Below, one piece after another: positions 9,419 through 30,995 of a DNA stretch of 33,941 nucleotides. A program made the position numbers and the translations under genes. Under the pieces are notes generated by a model. That model was not told the DNA's origin, did no database searches, and saw nothing but the letters and a program-made list of their open reading frames with translations. Numbering within the stretch: the stretch's first letter is position 1; the number at the start of each line of letters is the position of its first letter. The DNA is from Dehalococcoidales bacterium. GTDB taxonomy: Bacteria > Chloroflexota > Dehalococcoidia > Dehalococcoidales > UBA2162. The stretch spans positions 1 through 33,941 of the forward strand of contig JAUSGV010000066.1 in NCBI GenBank assembly GCA_030648675.1, in the 5' to 3' direction.

Positions 9419-10585
9419 CTAATCTCCGCTGTAGTTACCCCAATATCTGGGCATCCGCAATCCTTGAAGGTTTTGTTGGCTCAGTAAAGCTTTCAATTCA
9501 GGAATATCAAAAGCCGGTTGATTATCGTCTGCGTATTGCTTCTTGATAGCAAGTATCTCATCCTGGATGGCAAAGAAAGCGTCTACGACATCCGGATCAA
9601 AGTGGCTCCCCCTGCCATCTTTGATGATGGCCAACGACTTATCTATAGAAAATGGCTCCTTATCTGGTCGCTTGGAAGTTAGGGCATCAAATACATCTGC
9701 GATTGCCGTGATGCGGCCGGCGTTTGGTATCTCTTTACCTTTTAGCCCACCTGGATAGCCGCTGCCATCCCATTTCTCATGATGAGACTGGGCTATAACC
9801 TCTCCCAGCTTAATAAATTCGGCGTCTGAACCCTTAAGTATTCTGGCACCAATGACCGTATGCAACTTCATGATTTCCCACTCCACCGGATCGAACTTGG
9901 CCGGTTTAACCAGTATATGGTCGGGTATACCCATCTTGCCTACATCATGCATAGGCGCTGCATAAAGAAGGGTCTTGATAGTATTCTCGTCCAGTCCTAT
10001 GCGGCGGGCGACCGCAGCAGAATAACGACTCATTCGCTTGATATGTGCGCCTGTGTCCTCGTCCTTGTACTCAGAGTCCATAGACAGCCGGTAAATCGTG
10101 TCCAGCGAAGCTGTTTTTATCCCCTCAACGGCTTGCCTTAATTCCTCTGTCCTCCTGGTTACCTCGGACTCCAGCTCTGTCCGGTAATTACTCATCAAGT
10201 CGTTGTAGGCTTTGACCTTCAGCAGAGACTGTACCCTGGCTAAAAGCTCCGTCTTGTCAACGGGCTTTGAAAGGAAATCGTCACAACCGGCTTCAATACC
10301 TTTTACCCGGTCTTCCGTTTCTCGCAATGCTGTAACTAAAATCATGGGGAGCAATCGATGTATATTATCCTGCCGAACCCTACGGGCTACTTCAAAACCG
10401 TCCATGCCCGGCATCATGACGTCCAGCAAAATCAGATCGATTTGATTATCAGAGAGTTTCCCAAGAGCCTCTTCACCGCTTGCCGCCTTGACAATTTTAT
10501 AACCCTGCGGAGCAAGATAGGCTTCGAGAAGTTCAACGTTTTGGGTCTGGTCATCGACAACTAAAATTACCGGTTTGTCCTTCAC
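9419..10585 (-). CDS. Response regulator with HD-GYP output domain (RpfG-like, probable c-di-GMP phosphodiesterase)
   Basis: 388 aa. The N-terminal receiver has VVDD..., LDVMMPGMDG and SKP. The C-terminal domain has HDVGK and HHEKWDGSGYP (HD-GYP signature). Confidence 0.9.
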   Translation of the reverse strand: MKDKPVILVVDDQTQNVELLEAYLAPQGYKIVKAASGEEALGKLSDNQIDLILLDVMMPGMDGFEVARRVRQDNIHRLLPMILVTALRETEDRVKGIEAGCDDFLSKPVDKTELLARVQSLLKVKAYNDLMSNYRTELESEVTRRTEELRQAVEGIKTASLDTIYRLSMDSEYKDEDTGAHIKRMSRYSAAVARRIGLDENTIKTLLYAAPMHDVGKMGIPDHILVKPAKFDPVEWEIMKLHTVIGARILKGSDAEFIKLGEVIAQSHHEKWDGSGYPGGLKGKEIPNAGRITAIADVFDALTSKRPDKEPFSIDKSLAIIKDGRGSHFDPDVVDAFFAIQDEILAIKKQYADDNQPAFDIPELKALLSQQNLQGLRMPRYWGNYSGD

Positions 10586-12143: not shown

Positions 12144-12869
12144 ATGGGGAATAAAGAAACAAAAACCGGCACTCTTGGGGTCCTGATGATTGGGTTCAAT
12201 CCAGTTGTCAAAGAAGGACTACAAGCGATTCTGGCCAAAGACGAGAGAATTGAAATAATCGGAGATGTGCCTAATGAGCTTGATGCCCTCGAGCGTATCA
12301 AACAGGCTCATAAACGAGGCCAACAAGTCCGTGTGGTATTGACTGAGACTCGGAACAGTAAAGTGGATAGCGTGCAAATTACCAAGGTTATCAAGGACAA
12401 ATTCCCGGAGGTAGCCGTGCTGGTTCTTACGGAAAACCTCAACGATTCTTATATAATTGACGCCATCCAGTCCGGTGCAGCGGGATACATATTTCTTAAG
12501 GACATGTCACCGGAATTATTACTGCAAAGTATCTATCGTGCGGTTGAAGGCGGTTCCCAGATAAGTACAACGGTACTGCGTTCTGCCGTTGAAAATTTAA
12601 TTCAAAATGGACGAAAGACTCTTTCGGAACGTACGGCGGAAGCGGCTCATCTTACTGAAAGAGAAGTTGACGTACTCAGGCTCATGGGCAATGGAGACTC
12701 GAACAAGATAATTGCCGAGGCTTTGGGTATCACCCTGGATACTACTAAAAAACATGTGCGAAATGTCATCGATAAACTACAGGCACGCAGCCGTACTCAT
12801 GCGGCTATTATCGCCGCTCAAGCCGGCATTGTAGGTAGCCCTATCAAGAGGGATATCATCGAAAACTGA
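12144..12869 (+). CDS. LuxR/NarL-family transcription regulator with a degenerate (Asp-less) receiver domain
   Basis: The C-terminal GerE/LuxR HTH reads LTEREVDVLRLMGNGDSNKIIAEALGITLDTTKKHVRNVIDKL. In the N-terminal receiver fold, the DD pair is GF (VLMIGFNP) and the acceptor Asp is Glu (VVLTETR). The T (VLVLTEN) and K (FLKD) positions are kept. Confidence 0.85.
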   Translation: MGNKETKTGTLGVLMIGFNPVVKEGLQAILAKDERIEIIGDVPNELDALERIKQAHKRGQQVRVVLTETRNSKVDSVQITKVIKDKFPEVAVLVLTENLNDSYIIDAIQSGAAGYIFLKDMSPELLLQSIYRAVEGGSQISTTVLRSAVENLIQNGRKTLSERTAEAAHLTEREVDVLRLMGNGDSNKIIAEALGITLDTTKKHVRNVIDKLQARSRTHAAIIAAQAGIVGSPIKRDIIEN

Positions 12870-22799: not shown

Positions 22800-22901
22800 C
22801 TATTCCTCCGGCCATTAGAGTGCTTTACTTGAAAGACCTCCTTCAGGTAAAGCACTCCCTCGTAAATATCAGGGGTTGAGAATTATCTCAACCCCTTTTT
22901 A
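22800..22901 (+). ncRNA. Candidate small RNA of about 100 nt (promoter-to-terminator unit, non-coding)
   Basis: It runs from a predicted start near 22800 to the terminator. It contains single-stranded UUCCUCCGG (22803-22811). A 16-bp interrupted hairpin follows: outer stem GAGTGCTTTAC 22818-22828 / GTAAAGCACTC 22847-22857, and inner stem TTGAA / TTCAG. Its 8-nt apical loop reads AGACCUCC (22834-22841). No ORF is present. Confidence 0.4.
22871..22901 (+). terminator. Intrinsic terminator
   Basis: 10-bp stem GGGGTTGAGA (22872-22881) / TCTCAACCCC (22886-22895) with an ATTA loop, followed by TTTTTATTT. Confidence 0.8.
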
Positions 22902-23018: not shown

Positions 23019-23258
23019 CTATTTCTTCGCCGTTTTGGCTTTGGCCTTACTCGCCTTAGGCTTCATCGGCTCATCGCAGCACAGCAAGACCCTTTCTTCC
23101 CCGATCGCGACGCCGCCGACTTCCTCGACGACCACTGCCAAACCGCATACCTGGCATTCCAAAGCTTGGCCTTTGGTCACCTTTGTTCTGGCAGCCGGCT
23201 TTGCCTTTGCCGCCGATTTCTTGACCACCTTCTTTTGAGTTGCCGCTTTTTGAGCCAT
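23019..23258 (-). CDS. Desulforedoxin-like Fe(Cys)4 domain protein with Lys/Ala-rich N- and C-terminal tails
   Basis: 79 aa. AGGAGG lies 4-5 nt upstream of the ATG. The core, LECQVCGLAVVVEEVGGVAIGEERVLLCCDEPM, resembles D. gigas desulforedoxin [27 protein letters not shown] (CxxCG...CC..PM, with a 6-aa insertion). The tails are AQKAATQKKVVKKSAAKAKPAARTKVTKG and KPKASKAKAKTAKK. Confidence 0.7.
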   Translation of the reverse strand: MAQKAATQKKVVKKSAAKAKPAARTKVTKGQALECQVCGLAVVVEEVGGVAIGEERVLLCCDEPMKPKASKAKAKTAKK

Positions 23259-23279
23259 TCTTCCTCCTAAAAAGTTTTA

Positions 23280-23717
23280 TTACTTTGCGGTGCCTCCGGT
23301 TACGTACACGCCGAACACACCCATCTGGTCGTTAAAGACAACGGTACAATTATAGGAGGTATTGCCCGCCTGGATCGCCGCCAGGTCGTTGAGGGTACAG
23401 GCTTGTCCGCCGAGGGTCAGCGTCGTATTGGGTGAAATCGAGTAGGACTGCGTCCCGCCGGCAGTTTGAACGTTAATCGAGGAGTTTCCCCCGGCACTAG
23501 CCACCTTTACCCCGGCGAAAACGCCTGTGACGTTTTGATTCGCCGTAGGGGTTTTCGGTACTGTCGTCGGCTGATTGGTTTGAAGGTTGCAGCCCGCAAA
23601 AACCAGCATAACCAGCAGTATACCTGCTATACCAAAGAATTTCCTTTTCACAGCTTGGTCCGCCTTATCTTCCGGTGACCCAATTACTATGATAGTCCAA
23701 AAATCACGCGAAATCAT
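23280..23717 (-). CDS. Putative lipoprotein, Gly/Thr/Asn-rich beta-type domain with two Cys
   Basis: Signal peptide and lipobox: KRKFFGIAGILLVMLVFAG-C. The start is uncertain: ATG 23717 has no SD, and GTG 23651 would give a conventional 20-aa lipoprotein signal. I recognise no catalytic motif. Confidence 0.6.
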   Translation of the reverse strand: MISRDFWTIIVIGSPEDKADQAVKRKFFGIAGILLVMLVFAGCNLQTNQPTTVPKTPTANQNVTGVFAGVKVASAGGNSSINVQTAGGTQSYSISPNTTLTLGGQACTLNDLAAIQAGNTSYNCTVVFNDQMGVFGVYVTGGTAK

Positions 23718-23729
23718 AACAAATATGTA

Positions 23730-24539
23730 TCATTTTATTATCGGTTGGACACCCGCCGGGGTTTTGTCCTGGCTCTGAGCTTTTGGCTCCTTGCGTTTGA
23801 AAGTCTCCGCGAACCACAGGGGGTAATGCTGTCTCGCATAGGATTCGGACACTTTGCCGTCGAGCATAGAGCTTAACGATTCATCGGTTCTGGGATGCAG
23901 CATGCTCATGTACAGGTGCACGGTAAACATGACAGAGACAACTACAAAAGCCAGCGCGTGCGTGAACGAAGCCCAAAGATACAAACTGGTTTCACCCCGC
24001 CCCTTGAAAAACCATAAAAAGAGACCTGTGGGCAAAAGCACTGCCGCGGTAATAACGACAATCAATTGCCACAATTTCTGCCCGCCGTTGATGCGCCTTT
24101 GCGGCGGCATTTCGTCGCTGGTACCGAAATAATAGCTCAATGCTGATTTCACCCACGCTATATCGTCTTTCCCCCAACGGAATGTCTCCTTAATAAAATC
24201 AGCGGTGAGCCTGGGATTGGAAATCAAAAAGATCGTTGGCACTATGGCAAAAAATATCCCTGCAATAATATGGACCGCTCTTATGTCGTTTTTTCCGTTG
24301 GCATCGAGCAGATTAAAAAATAAAAGGGCCCCGGTTACGGTTAGAAAAACAAAGGCTATCGTATGGAGCCAGTGAGTTAAAATAGCCGCCTTCCCGAACC
24401 GCACCACTGTCCTTTTCTCGGTTCCCGCTGCCAATCTGGTTCTTCTGTTCACGATGGCGAAGTTAACCGAAATGCAGATAAAGCTGATTGCGAGTAGGGC
24501 GATTTCCAGCCATCTAAGGCCGGTAAACAAACGGTCCAT
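23730..24539 (-). CDS. Di-heme cytochrome b, FdnI / Ni-Fe-hydrogenase b-type subunit family (Ni_hydr_CYTB-like)
   Basis: 269 aa with 4-5 TM helices. Candidate heme-ligand His residues are in ILTHWLHTIAF, AVHIIAG, FTHALAF and VHLYMSMLHP. The family-typical INGGQK loop is present. Confidence 0.75.
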   Translation of the reverse strand: MDRLFTGLRWLEIALLAISFICISVNFAIVNRRTRLAAGTEKRTVVRFGKAAILTHWLHTIAFVFLTVTGALLFFNLLDANGKNDIRAVHIIAGIFFAIVPTIFLISNPRLTADFIKETFRWGKDDIAWVKSALSYYFGTSDEMPPQRRINGGQKLWQLIVVITAAVLLPTGLFLWFFKGRGETSLYLWASFTHALAFVVVSVMFTVHLYMSMLHPRTDESLSSMLDGKVSESYARQHYPLWFAETFKRKEPKAQSQDKTPAGVQPIIK

Positions 24540-24551
24540 AATCTTCTCATC

Positions 24552-24989
24552 CTAATCTAAAGGCAGCTTTACCTTGCTTAGCCAGAAATCTAGTAAAGAA
24601 CGTACGACGTCTGTCAGGGTGCCCAGATCCAAAGGTTTCACCAGATAACAATTGGCACAAAGATCGTAACAGGTCGAAACGTCCACGGGGGAACTCGACC
24701 CTGTCAACACAATCACCGGTATCCTCTTGAATTTAGGCGAAGATTTTAATTCAGCCAGCAATTCACGCCCATCGTAACGCGGCAAATTTAAATCAAGTAT
24801 GATAATTGCCGGCCTCGGAGAACCTTGTGATTCCATTTGATGGTTTAGAAAATCTGTGGCTTCGATGCCGTCCCGGGCCACATGAACGACTACATCCGGC
24901 CGGAATTCTTTTATTATGTCGGTTATGAGTACGACATCTCCCGGATTGTCTTCGACAAGCAGGACGTCTACATTCGGTTCATCCGGCAT
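24552..24989 (-). CDS. Single-domain (CheY/Rcp1-like) response regulator
   Basis: 145 aa with LLVEDNPGD, acceptor IILDLNLP, LTGS and VKP. GGGAGG lies upstream. It overlaps the 3' end of the upstream kinase gene by 11 nt. Confidence 0.9.
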   Translation of the reverse strand: MPDEPNVDVLLVEDNPGDVVLITDIIKEFRPDVVVHVARDGIEATDFLNHQMESQGSPRPAIIILDLNLPRYDGRELLAELKSSPKFKRIPVIVLTGSSSPVDVSTCYDLCANCYLVKPLDLGTLTDVVRSLLDFWLSKVKLPLD

Positions 24990-26445
24990 TCCTTGTGCCT
25001 CCCGGATTTACCGGCAGGGTGAAAGTAAATGTCGACCCCTTGTCCGGTTGCGAATCCACATAAACTTGCCCACCGTGACTTTCGATTATTTTTTTTACAA
25101 TTGCCAGACCGGTCCCGGTTCCCGGGTACTTGCCTCTCGCTTGTAGCTGTTGGAATAAAACGAATAAACGGGAAGAGAATTTCGGATCGATACCGATCCC
25201 GTTGTCCTTTACGGAAAAGGCCCATTCGTGCTTTTCTTCATCCTTCCAGGCCGAAACGTGTATTTGCGGAGTTTGTTCACCATGGAATTTGATTGCGTTA
25301 TCGATCAGGTGCTGTAATGCCCGTGCGATAAGCGTTCCATCGGCACGGATTACCGGGAGCGGATCGTGCGTTACAATCGCCCCGGTTTCCTTTACCTCGT
25401 TTTTAAGCCGCTCCATAATTTCACGGAACACGGTTTCCATATTCACGTCTTCGAATTGCCCATCGTGGCCGGCACGTGAATACGCTAAAAGGTCGTCTAT
25501 CAGTCTTTCCATCCGGGCAGCATTACTTACGATATACCCTATGTATTCATCAGCATCGGCCCCCAGTTTATCTTTGTAATGTTTTTCTAACATCTGGGAA
25601 AAGCTCGTTACCATGCGCAGCGGCTCCTTCAAATCATGTGACGCCGCATTGGCATACATCCTCAATTGCCTTTCGGCTTCAGCCAATTTCCTGTGGGCCG
25701 CTTCAAGTTCTGCCTTCGAGGCGATGACGTTTTTTAGATTTTCCGTCATCCGGTTGAAAGCCCGTGACAGGTCGGCGAACTCGTCATTTCCGGAAACAGG
25801 AATTACGTAGTCCAGATTACCTGAACCTACGATCTGGGGCCCAACAATCACTTTTGCAAGAGAACCTAATATCCGGCGGTTTATCAGTAACGCGTTGATA
25901 TATATCCCTATCCCGAAGATCAGGAATAAACCTAGCATCATTAAATTGTTAGTTTGCCTTAGTCTGTCGGATTTTTCATGTATTAAAAAATGAAGTCGAA
26001 TAATGTCCGTAACCATAGCCTGACTTTGTGCCTGCATCCGGCTCCACAACGTGCGAACGTACGCCAGATCGTTTAATGCAGACGGATTGGCATCAACATA
26101 GGATTGTATGTCGGAAAGTACTGCCAGAAATCTTTTCTGGTTCGCATTAGCTTCATCAACCAGACTTTGTTCTAACGCAGATTCCGCTTTAAAACGAGAA
26201 AGGTTGTCGGAAACGGCGTTTGTCTTTAACCTTAATAATTCGAGTTGGGAAGGGTATTGGAAAAGCAAATAGGCATTGGTGAGATAGGCGATCTCCTGGG
26301 CGTTTTGCTGAATACTCTCCGTCATACGCAGGTCAGTCTGGACTCTTTGTGCCCGGTTGTTCCAAAAAATTACTACACACACCGCTATCAGGACCATGAT
26401 AGCCCCAATAGAGGTACTTATATAAAACCGCGTCCTTACTCGCAC
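24979..26445 (-). CDS. Membrane sensor histidine kinase (TM - helical periplasmic domain - TM - HAMP - HisKA - HATPase_c)
   Basis: 488 aa with a GTG start 9 nt after the stop of the binding-protein gene. The HAMP domain reads DEFADLSRAFNRMTENL. The H-box is ASHDLKEPLRM. N, G1 and G2 boxes are present (DNAIKF, DNGIGI, GTGLAI). Confidence 0.9.
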   Translation of the reverse strand: MRVRTRFYISTSIGAIMVLIAVCVVIFWNNRAQRVQTDLRMTESIQQNAQEIAYLTNAYLLFQYPSQLELLRLKTNAVSDNLSRFKAESALEQSLVDEANANQKRFLAVLSDIQSYVDANPSALNDLAYVRTLWSRMQAQSQAMVTDIIRLHFLIHEKSDRLRQTNNLMMLGLFLIFGIGIYINALLINRRILGSLAKVIVGPQIVGSGNLDYVIPVSGNDEFADLSRAFNRMTENLKNVIASKAELEAAHRKLAEAERQLRMYANAASHDLKEPLRMVTSFSQMLEKHYKDKLGADADEYIGYIVSNAARMERLIDDLLAYSRAGHDGQFEDVNMETVFREIMERLKNEVKETGAIVTHDPLPVIRADGTLIARALQHLIDNAIKFHGEQTPQIHVSAWKDEEKHEWAFSVKDNGIGIDPKFSSRLFVLFQQLQARGKYPGTGTGLAIVKKIIESHGGQVYVDSQPDKGSTFTFTLPVNPGGTRNAG

Positions 26446-26454
26446 ATCCGGTAC

Positions 26455-27462
26455 CTAACGAATGATGGTCACTGCCGACCGATTCACGGCCCTAAGCGCG
26501 TCAAGGTAAAAGAAAGCCGCGAAATCAGGAATTTTGTTTGGAGACACCAAACCGGCTTCACTCATCCATTTCGCTTCATCGTTCATTATCGCGACCACGG
26601 CGAGGTCCAATGACAACATAAAACGGGTTAACGGCCATTCGGTTTCGATATATCCGGAATCGAGGTTTTGCTGCTTTGCTATTATCGTTTTCGCGTCTGT
26701 CGGCTGATTTAAAATAAACTGTTCGGCTGCATCTATTGCTCTGAGGTACTTTTCTACTAATTCTTCATAGGCAGTTATCCGATCCGCGCGTGCTACGGCT
26801 AGTCTGTAGCTTGTTTGATTACCCTGTGCCGGCCAGGTCAGAATGTCGGATTGCGGTTCAAGCTGATTTACGTAAATTCTCGAAAAAACTACTGCACTTA
26901 ACTCGCCGGCGTTGTAGTAATTAATCAATTGTGTCTGCGTGCCGTTAACAACAGTTATGTCCCTTAAACTAAGCCCGTTACGCTCCAAAAGGCGGCTCAA
27001 ATAGAATAAATTAACCGTGTCCGTGTTTACGCCAACCCTTTGGCCCTTTAAGGCAACAACCCCATCAATTCCGCTGCTTTTTCGAGCGGCCAATAATACC
27101 CCTTCGTATTTACTGTCGCTCGCAATTACTCTTACCGGTTGATTATCCAGGATGTTCCTGACCATTATGAATTCGGTCACGTAAGCGATATCCAAATTTC
27201 CTTCTGCCAGGGCGGCGGAAGCCTGAGTTCCCGTTTCGAAGCGTGTGAAAGTTACATTCAGGCCGTTGGCAGCAAAATATCCCTGGGCGTCAGCTATCAC
27301 TGCCGGACCGGCGGTAAGGTCTTTGAGGATGCCGACTCGTATAGATTCAACGGTTACCGGTTGGCCGTTTTGAGAACATGCCGTCCCTCCGGACGCTGCA
27401 AATAGTAGTGCCGCCGCGGCAACGGCTATTGTTTGAGTAATTTTGTAAACGTAACACCTCAT
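26455..27462 (-). CDS. Periplasmic substrate-binding lipoprotein, NMT1/SsuA/TauA-like (NitT/TauT family), no permease or ATPase partner
   Basis: 335 aa. The signal peptide has a lipobox-like AASGGTA-C. The type-2 PBP sequence pattern (IRVGIL...GNLDIAYV...ALKGQRVGV) matches the family. Its ATG overlaps the upstream kinase stop (ATGA). Confidence 0.75.
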   Translation of the reverse strand: MRCYVYKITQTIAVAAAALLFAASGGTACSQNGQPVTVESIRVGILKDLTAGPAVIADAQGYFAANGLNVTFTRFETGTQASAALAEGNLDIAYVTEFIMVRNILDNQPVRVIASDSKYEGVLLAARKSSGIDGVVALKGQRVGVNTDTVNLFYLSRLLERNGLSLRDITVVNGTQTQLINYYNAGELSAVVFSRIYVNQLEPQSDILTWPAQGNQTSYRLAVARADRITAYEELVEKYLRAIDAAEQFILNQPTDAKTIIAKQQNLDSGYIETEWPLTRFMLSLDLAVVAIMNDEAKWMSEAGLVSPNKIPDFAAFFYLDALRAVNRSAVTIIR

Positions 27463-29543
27463 GACAAAACTTGCTCCTGGCTCCCTGTTTCCTTTTCGGT
27501 ATTATTGATAGCAACGGTAAAATAGAAAGTCGATCCTTTGCCTGGCTCCGACTCTACCCAGACGCGTCCTCCGTGCCTTTGCACTACGCGTTTGGTTATA
27601 GCCAGGCCCATGCCTGAGCCGGGGTACTCCTCCTGGGGATTTAATCTGCTGAAAATCACAAACAAACGGCCAAACAACTCTTGAGATATGCCGATCCCAT
27701 TGTCTTTGACATAAAAAATCCATTCGCTGTCTTTTTTGTACGAAACACGTACCACCGGCTGCTCTCCCTGGCAGTGGAATTTGATGGCATTTGAAATTAA
27801 ATTTTGCAGAACCTGAGCCATCTGCGCCGGGTCCGCCTCGATCTCGGGCAGTTTGTCGTGAGTTATTGTTGCGCCGGTTTCTTCGATACTTACCTTAAGG
27901 TTTACTAAAACATCCTGAAACACCCTTTCCATGTCGACTTGCTGGAACGGTAATGTCTGTGTTGCCACCCTGGAAAATATCAGCAAATCGTCTAGCAGCC
28001 TCTGCATGCGCGCGGCTCCGTTGACGACGAATTCGACATACTCTCTTGCCCTTGCGTCCAGTTTGTCCTCCAGGTATTTTGCTAAAGACTGGCTGAAACT
28101 GGTCATCATTCGCAGCGGCTCGCGCAAGTCATGAGACGCCGCGTAAACGAACTGCTGTAGTTGGGCGTTAGCTTCCTCAAGTTTGACGGAATATTCCTTG
28201 AGCTTAACTTCCGCCTTCTTCCGTTCGGTGATGTCTACGCTTATTGAGATGGCGTAGGTTTTCCCGCCAATGGTAATCTGTTCGCTCGAGGAAAGCACGG
28301 ATATGAGTTTGCCCGTCTTGGTCCTTACGCTAAACTCACGGTTAATCATCTTGCCCGTCTCAAGAAAGTCCTGGATGCCTGCCGCCCGCTGCTCCGCATT
28401 TGGGAACATGCCCAGCTCGACGGAGGTATGGCCAACTATCTCTTCCCGGTTGTATTCCGTCAGCCTTAAGAAGCTATCGTTCACTTCGGTCCAGCGCCCG
28501 TCAGGGAGAGAAGCAATCGTCATCGCCAAGGGGCTGGATTGGAAAGTCTTGAAGAACCTTTCCTCGCTTTCCTTGAGTGCTTGCTCCGCTTTCTTGTGGG
28601 CTGTTATATCAACTAATATGCCCCGAACCCCCTGGACCTCGGCATTTTTGATTGCAAGACTGTGTACAAGTGCCGGGAATTGCGTCCCGTCCCGCCTTTT
28701 TATTAAGTACTCATTTGCACCGGCATCTTCGCCGCGAAGGACTCGCGCGAAACTGCTCCTGGCCGTAACGACGTAAGCTGGAGAAAAGATATCGAACAGA
28801 CTCAAACCCTTTTTGACTTCCTCTTCACTGGACCCCAATAAAGCCAGCATCCGGCGATTGGTATAAGTTAACGCACCGCTTGTATCAGTTTCATATATTC
28901 CTTCGGATAGAGCGTCGGCAAGTTCGCGAAATCTCTGTTCGCTTTCTTTCAAGGCTGTTTCAGCTTTTTTTTGCTCGGTCACGTCCATGATTGCCAGTCT
29001 GCATTGGCGTTGCCCGCCGACTTCCGGAGTCCACCCGATCCGCGCACTGACCGCAAAAACGCTGCCGCTGCTCTTATGCATCTGGTATTCACATGCGATC
29101 AACGCTTTCGACTTTTCAGCATTCTGTAAGCACAGATAAAAGGTATCCGTATAGGCCGGCAAAAGGTATCTGGTAAAGACATCGTTAAGCAGGTCCTGTC
29201 TGCTCAACCCCAGCATGGTACATCCGGTCAAGTTGACCTCAAGAATGCGATAATCGGGTGCCAGCGTAAAATAGCCGACTGGCGCGAAGTCAAATAACTC
29301 TCTATAATCGTCGCGCGATTTCTCCAGTTCCTTGCTGATCCGCTGTAACGACTCGTTCTGCGTGGCGAGCTGAATCTGGTGCACGTTTAATTCCTGGACT
29401 ACTTCTTCGATTTTTTCGGCCGGCATTTCAGAAACATCGAGCGGGATTTTCTCCGCTTGAGCTTCTGCCCGCTGGCGGGCGCTGATTTCCGTATCGTTTG
29501 ACGATTCTTTGAGTTTTGTTTTACTTCCGTTCGAATTTTTCAT
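27459..29543 (-). CDS. Cytoplasmic multi-PAS sensor histidine kinase (coiled coil + 3 PAS + HisKA + HATPase_c)
   Basis: 694 aa with no TM segment. There are three PAS-like repeats, each followed by (V/I)D(V/I)T(E/A)(Q/H/R)KKAE. The H-box is ASHDLREPLRM. The ATPase N/G boxes are SNAIKF, DNGIGI and GSGMGLAI. Confidence 0.9.
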   Translation of the reverse strand: MKNSNGSKTKLKESSNDTEISARQRAEAQAEKIPLDVSEMPAEKIEEVVQELNVHQIQLATQNESLQRISKELEKSRDDYRELFDFAPVGYFTLAPDYRILEVNLTGCTMLGLSRQDLLNDVFTRYLLPAYTDTFYLCLQNAEKSKALIACEYQMHKSSGSVFAVSARIGWTPEVGGQRQCRLAIMDVTEQKKAETALKESEQRFRELADALSEGIYETDTSGALTYTNRRMLALLGSSEEEVKKGLSLFDIFSPAYVVTARSSFARVLRGEDAGANEYLIKRRDGTQFPALVHSLAIKNAEVQGVRGILVDITAHKKAEQALKESEERFFKTFQSSPLAMTIASLPDGRWTEVNDSFLRLTEYNREEIVGHTSVELGMFPNAEQRAAGIQDFLETGKMINREFSVRTKTGKLISVLSSSEQITIGGKTYAISISVDITERKKAEVKLKEYSVKLEEANAQLQQFVYAASHDLREPLRMMTSFSQSLAKYLEDKLDARAREYVEFVVNGAARMQRLLDDLLIFSRVATQTLPFQQVDMERVFQDVLVNLKVSIEETGATITHDKLPEIEADPAQMAQVLQNLISNAIKFHCQGEQPVVRVSYKKDSEWIFYVKDNGIGISQELFGRLFVIFSRLNPQEEYPGSGMGLAITKRVVQRHGGRVWVESEPGKGSTFYFTVAINNTEKETGSQEQVLS

Positions 29544-29558
29544 GACCTTCCGCTCAAG

Positions 29559-30620
29559 CTAGGAATAAACGATCTTCTTGCCGAAGTAATCCAGGAGAAC
29601 GGCAAACACGAATTGAATAATGAGCAGGACCAGATACAAATAGGCGGCCGGGGAAGCCAGCACTATCTCCGGGCTGGTGAGCCTCCAGAGAAACAGGCCC
29701 AATATAGCGATAAACAAGAAAACGCTCAGGCTGAATTTATAATTGAATTTTCGCGATACCTGGTTTTCATAACTGACTGCCCACCCGATAAGTCCGGTGA
29801 AGATACTTACAGGTAAAGTAACCAACCCCAACAAAAGCAGGTACAGGGTTATCTGGTCGAAAATGCTTTTGCCAAGAAGTATCCATGCTGCGAAAGAAAA
29901 AGGGGCAACAACCGTGTAAGCAACCGTCAAATGGACCAGTGAAGTATGCGGCTTGAGGCTGTCGATCTTGCGGAATAGTTTGTGTTGAGCTGTCTCCTTT
30001 AAAGCAAGAAAACCGACGATAGGCAGCCGCGCCATCACCTCTTCGCCGTGCGGCGCCGGCAGAATTGCTTCAGTTAGGTCAATCCCGGCGCGGTGCTTTG
30101 CGCTGTGCAGGCCCTCTTTCCAACGTCTGCTGCCCGTCGCGTCAAACACCTGTCCTTTGAAGGCCACATAGGCTGCCCTGCCCTCTTTGCCGTCGGAACC
30201 GGCAAGTTCTTCAACGGAGAATGCGGTTTCCCTGCCCGCCCTCCTTGCTATCGCGTAGCGGATAGTCCTGACCAGCGTGTTGGCATCGATTTTTCCTTTA
30301 ACGAGGTAATCCTGCGCCCCCCGCCGGACCGTGCTGACGGCAAAAGTATCGTCATCGAGGCCGGTAAGGATAATAATTGGCAACACCGGAGCCACCGATT
30401 GAACGCGGGTAAAAGTCGTCGAACGCTGCGGGCTGTCTGGCAGGCCGAGGTCGAGTAATACGATGCTGTACCGGTTATCCGAAAGACTGTCGATGCCGCT
30501 TTTCAGAGTCTGTTTCCAGTCTACGGTAAAAGCCATGCCCGCGGCTTCGGCAAGCATATCCTCGATGAGGCGGGCATCTCCAGGGTTGTCCTCAATGAGA
30601 AGAACCCGTATATTTTCCAT
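29559..30620 (-). CDS. Response-regulator receiver fused to a cytochrome-b5-like (COG4892-type heme/steroid-binding) domain and a 4-TM DUF2231-like membrane domain
   Basis: The start is moved to ATG 30620 (MENIRVLLIEDNPGD), which has AGGAG 5 nt upstream. The track start at 30737 has no SD. REC motifs are EDNPGD, VLLDLGLPD, ILTG and VKGK. The middle region FSVEELAGSDGKEGRAAYVAFKGQVFDATGSRRWKEGLHSAKHRAGIDLTEAILPAPHGEEVMARLPIVG matches the COG4892 / cyt-b5-like pattern. The C-terminus has HTSLVHLTVAY plus four hydrophobic helices. Confidence 0.75.
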   Translation of the reverse strand: MENIRVLLIEDNPGDARLIEDMLAEAAGMAFTVDWKQTLKSGIDSLSDNRYSIVLLDLGLPDSPQRSTTFTRVQSVAPVLPIIILTGLDDDTFAVSTVRRGAQDYLVKGKIDANTLVRTIRYAIARRAGRETAFSVEELAGSDGKEGRAAYVAFKGQVFDATGSRRWKEGLHSAKHRAGIDLTEAILPAPHGEEVMARLPIVGFLALKETAQHKLFRKIDSLKPHTSLVHLTVAYTVVAPFSFAAWILLGKSIFDQITLYLLLLGLVTLPVSIFTGLIGWAVSYENQVSRKFNYKFSLSVFLFIAILGLFLWRLTSPEIVLASPAAYLYLVLLIIQFVFAVLLDYFGKKIVYS

Positions 30621-30943
30621 GCTGCTCCTGGACGGACTCACCTGTGCCGCGAAAAAACCATCGGAGAGCAGGTGCTGCCAAGATAATTCTAGACCTATTC
30701 CCGTTGCAGAGTCATAAAATCTGAATTCATAGACCATAAAGATTTTGTAACATTTTCATTTCTGTCCGTTGTTGTCTATAGTTGACTAATTCGCTTCGCG
30801 GGCTGATCCGAAAAATCAGGACCAATTACTTCTGCTGGAATTCAAGCCCCATTTCGCTATATACTATAGAAACTATGAACACCATCCATATTCTGTTGCG
30901 TGCCCACAATTTGGCCGGCAGAGACAAACTCATCCTTACCGTC

Positions 30944-30995
30944 CCCTCACCTTTTTAATTTCCCTCTCCCTCGATGGGAGAGGTGTAGGTGAGGG
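30944..30995. repeat. Nested C-rich/G-rich double hairpin element
   Basis: Outer stem CCCTCACCT (30944-30952) / AGGTGAGGG (30987-30995). Inner stem CCTCTCCC (30963-30970) / GGGAGAGG (30976-30983). The track ORF 30936..31139(-) is just its translation. Confidence 0.6.

Follow-up and report, generated by a model that had tools for sequence, protein, structure and literature searches.

Gene composition of the block

We analyzed a 33,941-nt stretch of DNA from a Dehalococcoidales bacterium (contig JAUSGV010000066.1; hereinafter the window, which denotes the whole stretch) and, within it, a block of eight open reading frames (ORFs), all on the minus strand at 23019-30737, which are numbered here 1 to 8 in the 5' to 3' direction of that strand (Table 1). 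As far as we could find in the literature searched, the combination at the heart of this block, a response regulator with a predicted membrane-tethered haem b5M output genetically coupled to a CbcL-like cytochrome b, is a new combination of known families. The initial annotation described the block as an eight-gene operon that connects two kinase/receiver pairs to b-type haem membrane proteins and a desulforedoxin-like protein, with no transcriptional output domain. The gene layout given there is borne out by the coordinates, including the ATGA overlap at the gene 2/gene 3 junction (27459-27462) and the 11-nt overlap of genes 4 and 5 (24979-24989). The remaining gaps of 9-21 nt (15, 9, 12, 12 and 21 nt) are reproduced with the original ORF calls, but the distance between genes 6 and 7 increases to 78 nt, and accommodates a conserved non-coding element, once the start of gene 7 is corrected.

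Among the domain families proposed for the block, REC, DUF2231, PAS, HisKA, HATPase_c, HAMP, NMT1 and Ni_hydr_CYTB score above the respective Pfam cutoffs, and Cyt-b5 and Desulfoferrod_N are sub-threshold. The 33.9-kb window lacks genes for ABC permeases or ATPases, for the catalytic subunits of formate dehydrogenase or hydrogenase, and for molybdopterin or iron-sulfur (FeS) subunits, in agreement with the original description of gene 3 as encoding an orphan binding protein and of gene 6 as a cytochrome b gene without adjacent catalytic subunits. The loci and the representatives of protein clusters that were compared with the window are denoted by L-numbers and P-numbers, respectively.

Table 1. 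Genes and other features of the block and its borders (TM, transmembrane)
Feature	Coordinates	Strand	Evidence and remarks
Gene 1, REC + cytb5M + 4-TM DUF2231	29559..30620	-	353 aa with the corrected start; Pfam, homologues, AlphaFold2
Gene 2, soluble 3xPAS histidine kinase	27459..29543	-	694 aa; Pfam PAS_9, HisKA, HATPase_c
Gene 3, NMT1/SsuA-like extracytoplasmic solute-binding protein	26455..27462	-	Pfam NMT1, 74.2 bits
Gene 4, 2-TM HAMP-HisKA-HATPase_c kinase with a ~130-aa outside loop	24979..26445	-	Pfam, hydropathy
Gene 5, stand-alone A-type receiver	24552..24989	-	145 aa; Pfam REC, 63.5 bits
Gene 6, FdnI/HydC-type dihaem cytochrome b with an extra N-terminal TM helix	23730..24539	-	Pfam Ni_hydr_CYTB, 80.9 bits
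Non-coding element 5' of gene 7	23690..23726	-	Kept in the window, L081, L169 and L170
Gene 7, lipoprotein, GTG start, lipobox VFAGC	23280..23651	-	Start conserved in four loci
Gene 8, desulforedoxin-like Cys4 protein with Lys/Ala-rich tails	23019..23258	-	Four Cys invariant in 13 homologues
Promoter-like ATGACT-18-TAGAAT 5' of the corrected gene 1 start	30686..30715	-	Consensus match only; block kept in L081
11-bp GC-rich hairpin, probable terminator	22871..22896		Terminator scan, T-run on the plus strand

A receiver fused to a haem b5M domain and DUF2231

The product of gene 1 consists of an N-terminal receiver, a cytochrome b5-like domain and a C-terminal DUF2231 domain with four TM segments detected in the hydropathy profile. 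In the Pfam search, REC (PF00072; 47.3 bits, cutoff 30.2) and DUF2231 (PF09990; 30.9 bits, cutoff 26.4) are confidently recognized and the Cyt-b5 match is sub-threshold (17.9 bits, cutoff 23.7). All three domains assigned to this protein previously are nevertheless real, the b5 domain being rescued by comparison with the structures of the cytb5M family (hereinafter b5M): the b5-DUF2231 profile matches the structures from Hadesarchaea (PDB 6NZX) and Methanococcoides burtonii (6VZ6) with E-values of 4.3e-30 and 4.2e-26, respectively, and the AlphaFold2 (AF2) model of gene 1 (mean predicted local confidence, pLDDT, 84.6) yields Foldseek TM-scores of 0.91 and 0.90 to these structures, with 52% and 45% sequence identity in the b5 domain. 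What had to be revised is the start of the gene. The homologues are 346-353 aa long and begin at MENIRVLLIEDNPGD, and the 39 extra codons 5' of M40, which include the conserved ATGACT-18-TAGAAT sequence, are shared with L081 as DNA but contain frame-breaking indels; therefore gene 1 spans 29559-30620, with M40 (position 30620, not 30737) as the true start.

In an alignment of 63 homologues, the phosphorylation residues E10, D11, D57 and K108 of the receiver show strict conservation, and T86 nearly so; in the b5 domain, the predicted axial ligands H172 and H191 are invariant, as is H176, and S164 is nearly so. These four b5 residues align with H42, H61, H46 and S34, respectively, of the cytb5M structures, in which the haem has bis-His ligation by H42 and H61 and is contacted by S34 and H46 (bioRxiv 10.1101/2021.11.30.470528). 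Judging from this conservation and from the modelled fold, the b5 domain of gene 1 is a genuine bis-His cytb5M domain that is predicted to bind haem. No TM segment separates it from the receiver, so it lies in the cytoplasm. The fold and the haem-contacting residues, including the axial ligands, are shared with the structurally characterized proteins; these were crystallized as chains of ~78 residues, whereas in gene 1 the domain lies between the receiver and the membrane bundle. The receiver itself superposes on PDB 6OAQ with a root mean square deviation of 1.7 A and 30% identity.

The REC-b5-DUF2231 family includes more than 100 clusters at 90% identity, with named sources among Dehalococcoidales, Chloroflexi/Chloroflexota and one metagenome-assembled genome (MAG) of Acidobacteriota. 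No description of the REC-b5M-DUF2231 fusion was found in the literature searched. In the two cytb5M papers, co-location with two-component genes and ferric reductase is stated for bacteria of the candidate phyla radiation only, and a term search of these papers found no occurrence of 'response regulator' or 'DUF'.

The b5M-DUF2231 module in other protein and gene contexts

The only paper in the searched literature that mentions DUF2231 is a database of cysteine residues in domains of unknown function, and no function of the family is known. The Foldseek search with the complete gene 1 model was swamped by receiver matches, and DUF2231 was modelled separately for the fold search. The isolated domain is predicted to form a membrane bundle of four long helices (pLDDT 88.5, predicted TM-score (pTM) 0.79). 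The possibility that this is a haem-binding bundle of the b561 type was considered and is unsupported: there is no significant PDB match, and the best ones (E = 0.26 at most favorable) are generic helical bundles, among them cytochrome b561 with a TM-score of ~0.55. Six of the eight invariant residues of DUF2231 (H225, H230, G276, W280, Y284 and K295, numbered as in gene 1) map, within the predicted helix limits, to the cytoplasmic leaflet beside the haem domain, which suggests a cofactor or quinone pocket at this position of the modelled bundle.

Searching with a profile of cytb5M plus DUF2231, we retrieved 3091 protein clusters (50% identity) at E <= 0.001, of which 202 were found at E <= 1e-30. 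Most of the full-length matches are proteins of ~225-250 aa that lack the receiver; the receiver-fused form accounts for about 5 representatives among the top 150 matches, and two other entries of ~340-360 aa among these 150 have a different N-terminus, with two b5M domains in the case of P0144. The module is joined to a variety of redox domains, namely a flavin reductase (Flavin_Reduct-b5M-DUF2231; P0169), the gamma/alpha domains of pyruvate:ferredoxin oxidoreductase (P0187, P0222), a half-rubrerythrin (P0206), and a fifth TM helix followed by a periplasmic class I cytochrome c (P0193). Tandem b5M domains are present in P0144 and P0155, and P0140 contains six cytb5M domains in tandem.

The gene neighborhoods of the receiver-less form (73 loci, L096-L168) are of the same kind. 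In 21 of these 73 loci, a gene for a half-rubrerythrin (~79 aa, sometimes fused to SRPBCC) is located 23-35 nt downstream of the b5M-DUF2231 gene, and the other neighbors include genes for cytochrome c (9 loci), NrfD (7), 4Fe-4S proteins (4), CydA (4) and UbiA (3). Because of the natural fusions to redox enzymes and of these redox-gene neighbors, b5M-DUF2231 can be marked as a putative electron-transfer module that links reductases of the cytoplasm to the membrane or the outside; the "small membrane electron-transfer module" of the original description thus appears to be a reasonable label, given the fusions. The N-terminal slot of the module, occupied by a receiver in gene 1, is taken by a reductase in one of the natural fusions.

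A dihaem cytochrome b related to cytochrome c-cytochrome b fusions

Gene 6 encodes a protein with five TM segments by hydropathy that belongs to the Ni_hydr_CYTB family (PF01292; 80.9 bits, cutoff 30.1) and is similar to FdnI of Escherichia coli (PDB 1KQF, chain C; E = 6e-13), as had been recognized in the initial annotation. H56 and the two histidines of TM4 align with H18, H155 and H169 of 1KQF_C; the fourth haem histidine, in TM2, is offset by 4 residues (one helical turn) from that of 1KQF_C in the pairwise alignment and is conserved within the clade. Gene 6 accordingly shares PF01292 membership and the register of three of the four haem histidines with the membrane anchors FdnI, HydC and PhsC (of formate dehydrogenase-N, NiFe hydrogenase and thiosulfate reductase, respectively), but differs from them in having an extra N-terminal TM helix and no catalytic subunits encoded nearby, and it scores 92.8 bits against the 115.85-bit cutoff of TIGR01583, the formate dehydrogenase gamma equivalog.

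The extra helix can be traced to the relatives of gene 6. The orthologues in L082, L083, L093, L172 and L173 are accompanied by 2-4 CXXCH motifs, either fused or in the preceding gene; the small proteins encoded by these preceding genes have a TM helix at each end and 2 or 4 CXXCH motifs. In L082, the small haem c protein is fused to the cytochrome b (372 aa), and gene 6 from residue 4 aligns with this fusion from residue 120 (48% identity), i.e. from the helix that links the c and b domains. There is no CXXCH motif in the gene 6 translation or in the L081 orthologue. By this comparison, gene 6 is an orthologue of the cytochrome c-cytochrome b fusions that has lost the haem c domain and kept the linking TM helix. 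A replacement of the lost domain by the gene 7 lipoprotein was considered and rejected, given that gene 7 encodes no CXXCH motif and is found without gene 6 in L169-L171.

The clade to which gene 6 belongs has few members and a sharp boundary: it comprises 31 clusters at >=44% identity, after which the identity falls to 33% and 25%. Three further members sit on contigs that are equally long as contigs bearing gene 1 homologues. One of the loci (L175, 9657-11619) contains genes for a small protein and a gene 6-clade cytochrome b followed by a gene for an MtrC/MtrF-like multihaem cytochrome, without signaling genes or gene 1, and may represent an extracellular electron-transfer module of an uncultured organism.

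In functional terms, the c + b pair of the relatives comes closest to CbcL of Geobacter sulfurreducens, which combines a dihaem cytochrome b with a nine-haem cytochrome c, functions as a menaquinol oxidase and is inactivated post-translationally by redox potential (bioRxiv 10.1101/2022.08.31.506072). We note this as a resemblance and do not claim homology. In the relatives of gene 6, as in CbcL, an FdnI/HydC-type dihaem b is combined, by fusion or as a neighbor, with a c-type cytochrome, which here is membrane-anchored and has 2 or 4 haems, and there is no FeS, flavin or molybdenum subunit. Their c domain is, however, much smaller and is absent in the window, gene 6 does not qualify as a CbcL-like bc cytochrome, and control of the activity would come from the linked phosphorelay rather than from intrinsic sensing of the potential.

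Kinases and receivers of a widespread class

The soluble kinase encoded by gene 2 contains three PAS domains (PAS_9), HisKA and HATPase_c, all above the Pfam cutoffs, and no TM segment according to hydropathy analysis; its kinase core is 62% identical to that of the L083 kinase, which in that locus is preceded by a KaiC-KaiB pair. In the gene 4 kinase, HAMP, HisKA and HATPase_c are above the cutoffs, and TM segments are located at residues 5-33 and 165-190. The product of gene 5 is a receiver (REC 63.5 bits, cutoff 30.2) with no other domain. Neither of the receivers of the block carries a DNA-binding output, as originally reported, and the motifs cited in the annotation are present, namely the EDNPGD string of the receivers and the kinase H-boxes ASHDLREPLRM and ASHDLKEPLRM.

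The interpretation of these motifs changes when they are examined in a wider range of genomes. At least 570 sites in bacterial and archaeal genomes encode receivers with the EDNPGDA../LLDLxLPDS patterns, and a kinase with an SHDLxEPL-type H-box is encoded in 58 of 80 control loci (1.24 Mb; L001-L080), which came from a contig scan with patterns that fell inside the receiver and contain no gene 1 orthologues. The two strings are class signatures and do not qualify as evidence of two paralogous kinase/receiver pairs in the block, as had been proposed. The kinase half of that proposal fares better than the receiver half: the kinase cores of genes 2 and 4 are 52% identical, with 71% DNA identity over an 85-nt stretch around the H-box, but the receivers of genes 1 and 5 are only 31% identical and represent two old subfamilies. 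Stand-alone receivers of this class from five unrelated genomes share 43-50% identity with that of gene 5. A-type receivers, which include gene 5, are stand-alone proteins, mostly of ~150 aa, and B-type receivers, which include that of gene 1, form the N-terminal part of proteins that are mostly 272-1454 aa long. An A-type receiver gene is located directly upstream in 59 of the 88 B-type cases from 80 bacterial and archaeal genomes. The layout seen across phyla in L001-L080 is a kinase, a stand-alone A-type receiver, and then a B-type receiver fused to an enzyme.

The domains found in 77 B-type proteins include the kinase ATPase (44 proteins), GGDEF (16), EAL (9), HD (4) and SpoIIE, a PP2C output (2); some of the proteins contain none of these. 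No DNA-binding family is present among the 25 families listed for the 77 proteins, so the absence of a transcriptional output, which the initial annotation presented as a distinguishing property of the block, is real but normal for the class. The effector domains behind B-type receivers presumably are regulated by these receivers. By its SHDLxEPL H-box, EDNPGD receivers and gene layout, the block can be assigned to the Cph1/Rcp1-like two-component class of enzyme-output regulators, for which the closest solved receiver comes from a dual-sensor histidine kinase (PDB 6OAQ/6OAP). Compared with the rest of the class, the unusual feature of gene 1 is the nature of its predicted output: its effector is a haem b5M domain with a 4-TM DUF2231 rather than a kinase, cyclase, phosphodiesterase or phosphatase, and such an output was found neither among the 77 class members sampled nor in the literature searched.

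A probable co-sensor of the membrane kinase

Gene 3, which has a signal-like N-terminal segment by hydropathy, matches Pfam NMT1 with 74.2 bits (cutoff 20.5) and TIGR01728 with 110.3 bits, below the cutoff of 163.5; given this sub-cutoff score and a window free of ABC genes, it does not qualify as a binding protein of an SsuA/NMT1 transporter. Five distant genomes (L010, L029, L030, L052 and L064), all MAGs, with the labels Deltaproteobacteria, Nitrospirae, SAR324, Methanosarcinales and Thermoplasmatales among them, have the same succession of genes for an NMT1-type binding protein, a 2-TM/HAMP kinase, receiver A and receiver B, and the gene 4 kinase is similar over nearly its full length (32-37% identity) to the kinases that follow the binding-protein genes in L010, L029 and L064. 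This recurrence of the gene order supports the role of gene 3 as a probable co-sensor of gene 4, in what looks like a widespread binding-protein-dependent sensor cassette. In L030, three NMT1-type genes are arranged in tandem.

Binding-protein-assisted sensor kinases include TorT-TorS, LuxP-LuxQ and XylFII-LytS. As in these systems, the orphan gene 3 is located directly upstream of the gene for a 2-TM kinase, and transporter genes are missing. The differences are that gene 3 belongs to another, NMT1/SsuA-like, family, that the outside domain of gene 4 matches no known Pfam family, and that the partnership of the pair described here is a predicted one.

Conserved linkage of the cassette core

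To assess the conservation of the cassette, we counted the loci of the clade with 51-76% identity to gene 1 (threshold >=51%) that have sufficient flanking sequence, i.e. the window, L081, L082, L083, L093, L095, L172 and L173. In all eight, the REC-b5M-DUF2231 gene is accompanied by genes for a kinase, a stand-alone A-type receiver and a gene 6-clade cytochrome b. A tblastn search detected no gene 6-clade cytochrome b in the 80 control loci (1.24 Mb) with the same receiver class, and there is none in the 73 loci with receiver-less b5-DUF2231 genes. Co-occurrence of these genes elsewhere, which was set beforehand as a point on which the hypothesis would depend, is thus found as a genetic link of the two-component system, REC-b5-DUF2231 and the FdnI-like cytochrome b in 8 of 8 loci, against 0 of 80 and 0 of 73 controls.

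Gene orders and flanks differ among the eight loci. The order is gene 1, kinase, receiver, small cytochrome c, cytochrome b in L093, L095 and L173; gene 1, KaiC, KaiB, kinase, receiver, cytochrome c, cytochrome b in L083; KaiC, KaiB, kinase, receiver, c-b fusion, gene 1 in L082; and cNMP (cyclic nucleotide monophosphate)-binding kinase, gene 1, receiver, cytochrome c, cytochrome b in L172. Three further loci (L090, L091 and L094) open in the same manner as L083, with gene 1 followed by KaiC up to the contig end. The module of L082 (1106-17468) is embedded between NiFe-hydrogenase structural genes (small subunit, large subunit and cytochrome b) and the HycI/HypACDEF maturation genes, and the four-gene module of L093 is located between cysS and a cardiolipin synthase gene. 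Repeated rearrangement with the linkage kept argues for selection on the linkage and, on this comparative evidence, for a functional tie between gene 1 and its partners.

Known outputs of Kai systems are transcriptional (SasA-RpaA). The relatives resemble KaiC-KaiB-kinase output systems in that the module includes or abuts KaiC-KaiB in L082, L083, L090, L091 and L094, together with the kinase and receiver in L082 and L083; in contrast, the window lacks Kai genes (no tblastn match to KaiC or KaiB at E <= 1e-5). A KaiC-KaiB-kinase cluster in L141 was not accepted as linkage, being ~1.7 kb away from a receiver-less b5-DUF2231 gene with ORFs of unknown function between them, which is too loose.

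The same loci bear on the possibility that the signal reaches transcription after all, through an unlinked DNA-binding regulator such as the REC-GerE protein encoded at 12144-12869, in which case the cytochrome genes would belong to a regulated operon and the receiver fusion would be a minor modulator. REC-GerE and REC-HD proteins are indeed encoded in the same window, and OmpR-type two-component pairs are found within 10 kb in L082 and L083. However, the four-gene core of L093 is self-contained between housekeeping genes, with no DNA-binding regulator, none is seen in the modules of L095, L172 and L173, the kinase/receiver class typically has partners that do not bind DNA, and some 12 kb, including the ilv genes, separate the block from the REC-GerE gene, which is encoded on the opposite strand. 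We consider this route improbable.

Genes 7 and 8 as a separate conserved pair

The lipobox supports the original identification of gene 7 as a lipoprotein gene, but its start had to be moved to GTG 23651, the counterpart of which is an ATG or TTG start codon in three related loci; hydropathy shows a signal-like segment at the N-terminus, the canonical lipoprotein signal ends with VFAGC, and the protein has no Pfam or NCBIfam match. Gene 8 matches Desulfoferrod_N (PF06397) with 17.8 bits, below the cutoff of 23. A desulforedoxin-like character, doubtful by this score, is suggested by the family: C35, C38, C60 and C61 (C-x2-C...CC) are invariant in 13 homologues, and 13 of 13 members have sub-threshold matches to PF06397 at E <= 0.1. 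The family, which includes 18 other clusters, has a 6-residue insertion relative to desulforedoxin; the profile match to PDB 1CFW is circular, the 1CFW sequence having been part of the profile. In this family (homologues P0122-P0137), Lys/Ala-rich tails flank the Cys4 core on both sides and resemble the nucleic-acid-binding tails of histone H1-like proteins.

Among the loci with gene 8 homologues, gene 8 is always paired with a gene 7 lipoprotein gene. In L169, L170 and L171, where leuA is 93-95% identical to that of the window, the order is leuA, an unrelated cassette, gene 7 and gene 8, and genes 1-6 are absent; in L081, the closest relative of the cassette (gene 1 76% identical), leuA is followed by genes 1-7 and an extra PAS kinase, without gene 8. 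The element upstream of gene 7 (ATATTTGTTATGATTT...TGGACTATCAT, also ATATTTGTTAT.ATTT ... TGGACTATCAT) has a single occurrence in the window and is shared by the window, L081, L169 and L170 irrespective of which gene precedes it; it is probably a promoter or operator of the gene 7-gene 8 pair. Because genes 7 and 8 are present in L169-L171 without genes 1-6 and have their own upstream element, they constitute an independent conserved pair. Comparison of the loci accordingly resolves the block into 6 + 2 genes, i.e. a variable cassette of genes 1-6 (23730-30620), situated between leuA and gene 7, and the unrelated pair 7-8.

This partition runs against the eight-gene operon as a functional unit and against the inclusion of the lipoprotein and the desulforedoxin-like protein in the system, both of which were part of the initial annotation. 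The eight genes do share the strand, are separated by short gaps and have no strong internal terminator, and as a convincing terminator is missing ahead of the hairpin at 22871-22896, transcription could continue past gene 6 into genes 7-8. That all eight, including the lipoprotein and the desulforedoxin-like protein, form a single redox-signaling unit is nevertheless already disfavored, and we give it very little credence, considering that genes 7-8 adjoin leuA in L169-L171 with unrelated or no cassette genes, that L081 has genes 1-7 without gene 8, and that the conserved element precedes gene 7 in all contexts.

A tentative model of a phosphorylation-gated electron-transfer module

Building on the observed gene content, domain identities, conserved catalytic and haem residues, linkage and architecture of the class, we tentatively propose that genes 1-6 are an accessory cassette encoding a branched two-component network without a transcriptional output, in which phosphorylation of the gene 1 receiver would gate an electron-transfer module. 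From the comparative evidence we regard this reading, which we prefer, as quite possible, if short of probable. Under this model, the gene 2 kinase would sense a cytoplasmic signal through its PAS domains, and the gene 4 kinase would read an extracytoplasmic ligand through the binding protein encoded by gene 3, its putative partner. The two kinases would phosphorylate the receivers of genes 5 and 1 in some pairing, with gene 5 serving as a competing phosphate sink or as a second branch. The phosphorylated gene 1 receiver would switch the haem domain between competent and incompetent states, and electron flow via b5M-DUF2231, probably to or from the dihaem cytochrome b of gene 6 through a presumed contact of the two proteins, would be adjusted post-translationally.

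A more specific version of this model is an "electron valve", in which the phosphorylated receiver, acted upon by the sensor kinases here and by KaiBC-linked kinases in the relatives, opens or closes a path from haem b5M through DUF2231 to the CbcL-like dihaem cytochrome b. This would be the first function assigned to DUF2231; in such detail, the scheme is speculative and, in our estimate, rather unlikely.

Several observations weigh against gating. The support for it comes from sequence and predicted structure, and the AF2 arrangement of the gene 1 domains relative to each other is uncertain (pTM 0.46) and so gives no docking geometry. Among solved structures, Foldseek finds no relative of DUF2231 (E = 0.26 for the best match), the domain has no known cofactor, and gene 6 has lost the haem c domain. 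The cytochrome b partner is not obligatory, given that in the clade with 40-47% identity (L084-L087 and L174) kinase, receiver and gene 1 are found without it, and conversely, L175 has a gene 6-clade cytochrome b without gene 1 or two-component genes. The eight linked loci may share one lineage, so that 8 of 8 would not amount to eight independent events. Finally, the fusion of a bis-His haem domain to a receiver would be just as compatible with a role in redox sensing.

The last point leads to an alternative in which information flows in the opposite direction: the haem protein, with or without the dihaem cytochrome b, would equilibrate with the quinone pool or the redox state of the membrane and alter the gain or loss of phosphate by the receiver, or the gene 2 kinase, while the true output would go through gene 5. 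Reporting the redox state is a classic role of bis-His haems. Gene 1 adjoins a soluble kinase in six loci (the window, L081, L093, L095, L172 and L173), and the two together resemble a split version of the receiver-sensor-kinase proteins that are common in the class; the relatives pair the module with KaiC-KaiB, a metabolic-state device, and one relative has a receiver-hemerythrin gene immediately downstream. All this fits sensing. Yet the stand-alone and enzyme-fused b5M-DUF2231 proteins indicate that the electron-transfer role of the module is autonomous, N-terminal receivers normally control the domain behind them, as is also suggested by the outputs of the 77 B-type proteins, and gene 5 has no identifiable target. 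Redox sensing appears to us a possible but somewhat doubtful explanation. The probability that remains beyond gating and sensing falls to transcriptional control, to the eight-gene unit, or to no functional link at all.

Response regulators control transcription, second-messenger enzymes, methylesterases and protein partners. To our knowledge, response regulators with a membrane haem electron carrier as output are not known, nor did the literature searched describe any. If the gating that we favor is correct, signals could re-route electron flow within seconds, without synthesis of new proteins, and a first handle on DUF2231, a widespread domain, would be at hand. The links to KaiC-KaiB and NiFe hydrogenase in the relatives would tie clock-like or energy-state signaling to respiration in uncultured, likely Chloroflexota/Dehalococcoidia-type anaerobes. 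Even if sensing is the correct explanation, the module would represent a new kind of membrane redox input into a phosphorelay.

Genomic surroundings of the block

The block is inserted on the opposite strand within an ilvD-ilvB-ilvN-Usp-ilvC ... leuA-MgtC neighborhood. Two more response regulators are encoded in the window, REC-HD (HD_5, possibly HD-GYP-like) at 9419-10585 on the minus strand and the above REC-GerE on the plus strand. On the downstream side, the hairpin listed in Table 1 separates gene 8 from a convergent helix-turn-helix (HTH) gene, with only a partial T tail on the minus strand; it adjoins a 19-nt inverted repeat at 22818-22857 (89% complementary, 2-nt loop), also located between the HTH gene and gene 8. 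The window contains 18 terminator-like sites against 12.1 +/- 3.3 expected; all those within the block have poor T-tails, and the count is uninformative. Rfam searches, which covered the window and the spacer between the divergent leuA and gene 1, yielded only tRNA-Leu (257-338). This spacer shares with L081 a nearly invariant block of ~90 nt (30860-30945) on the 5' side of leuA, which matches no Rfam family even at E <= 1 and may serve leucine biosynthesis as a leader or regulatory element.

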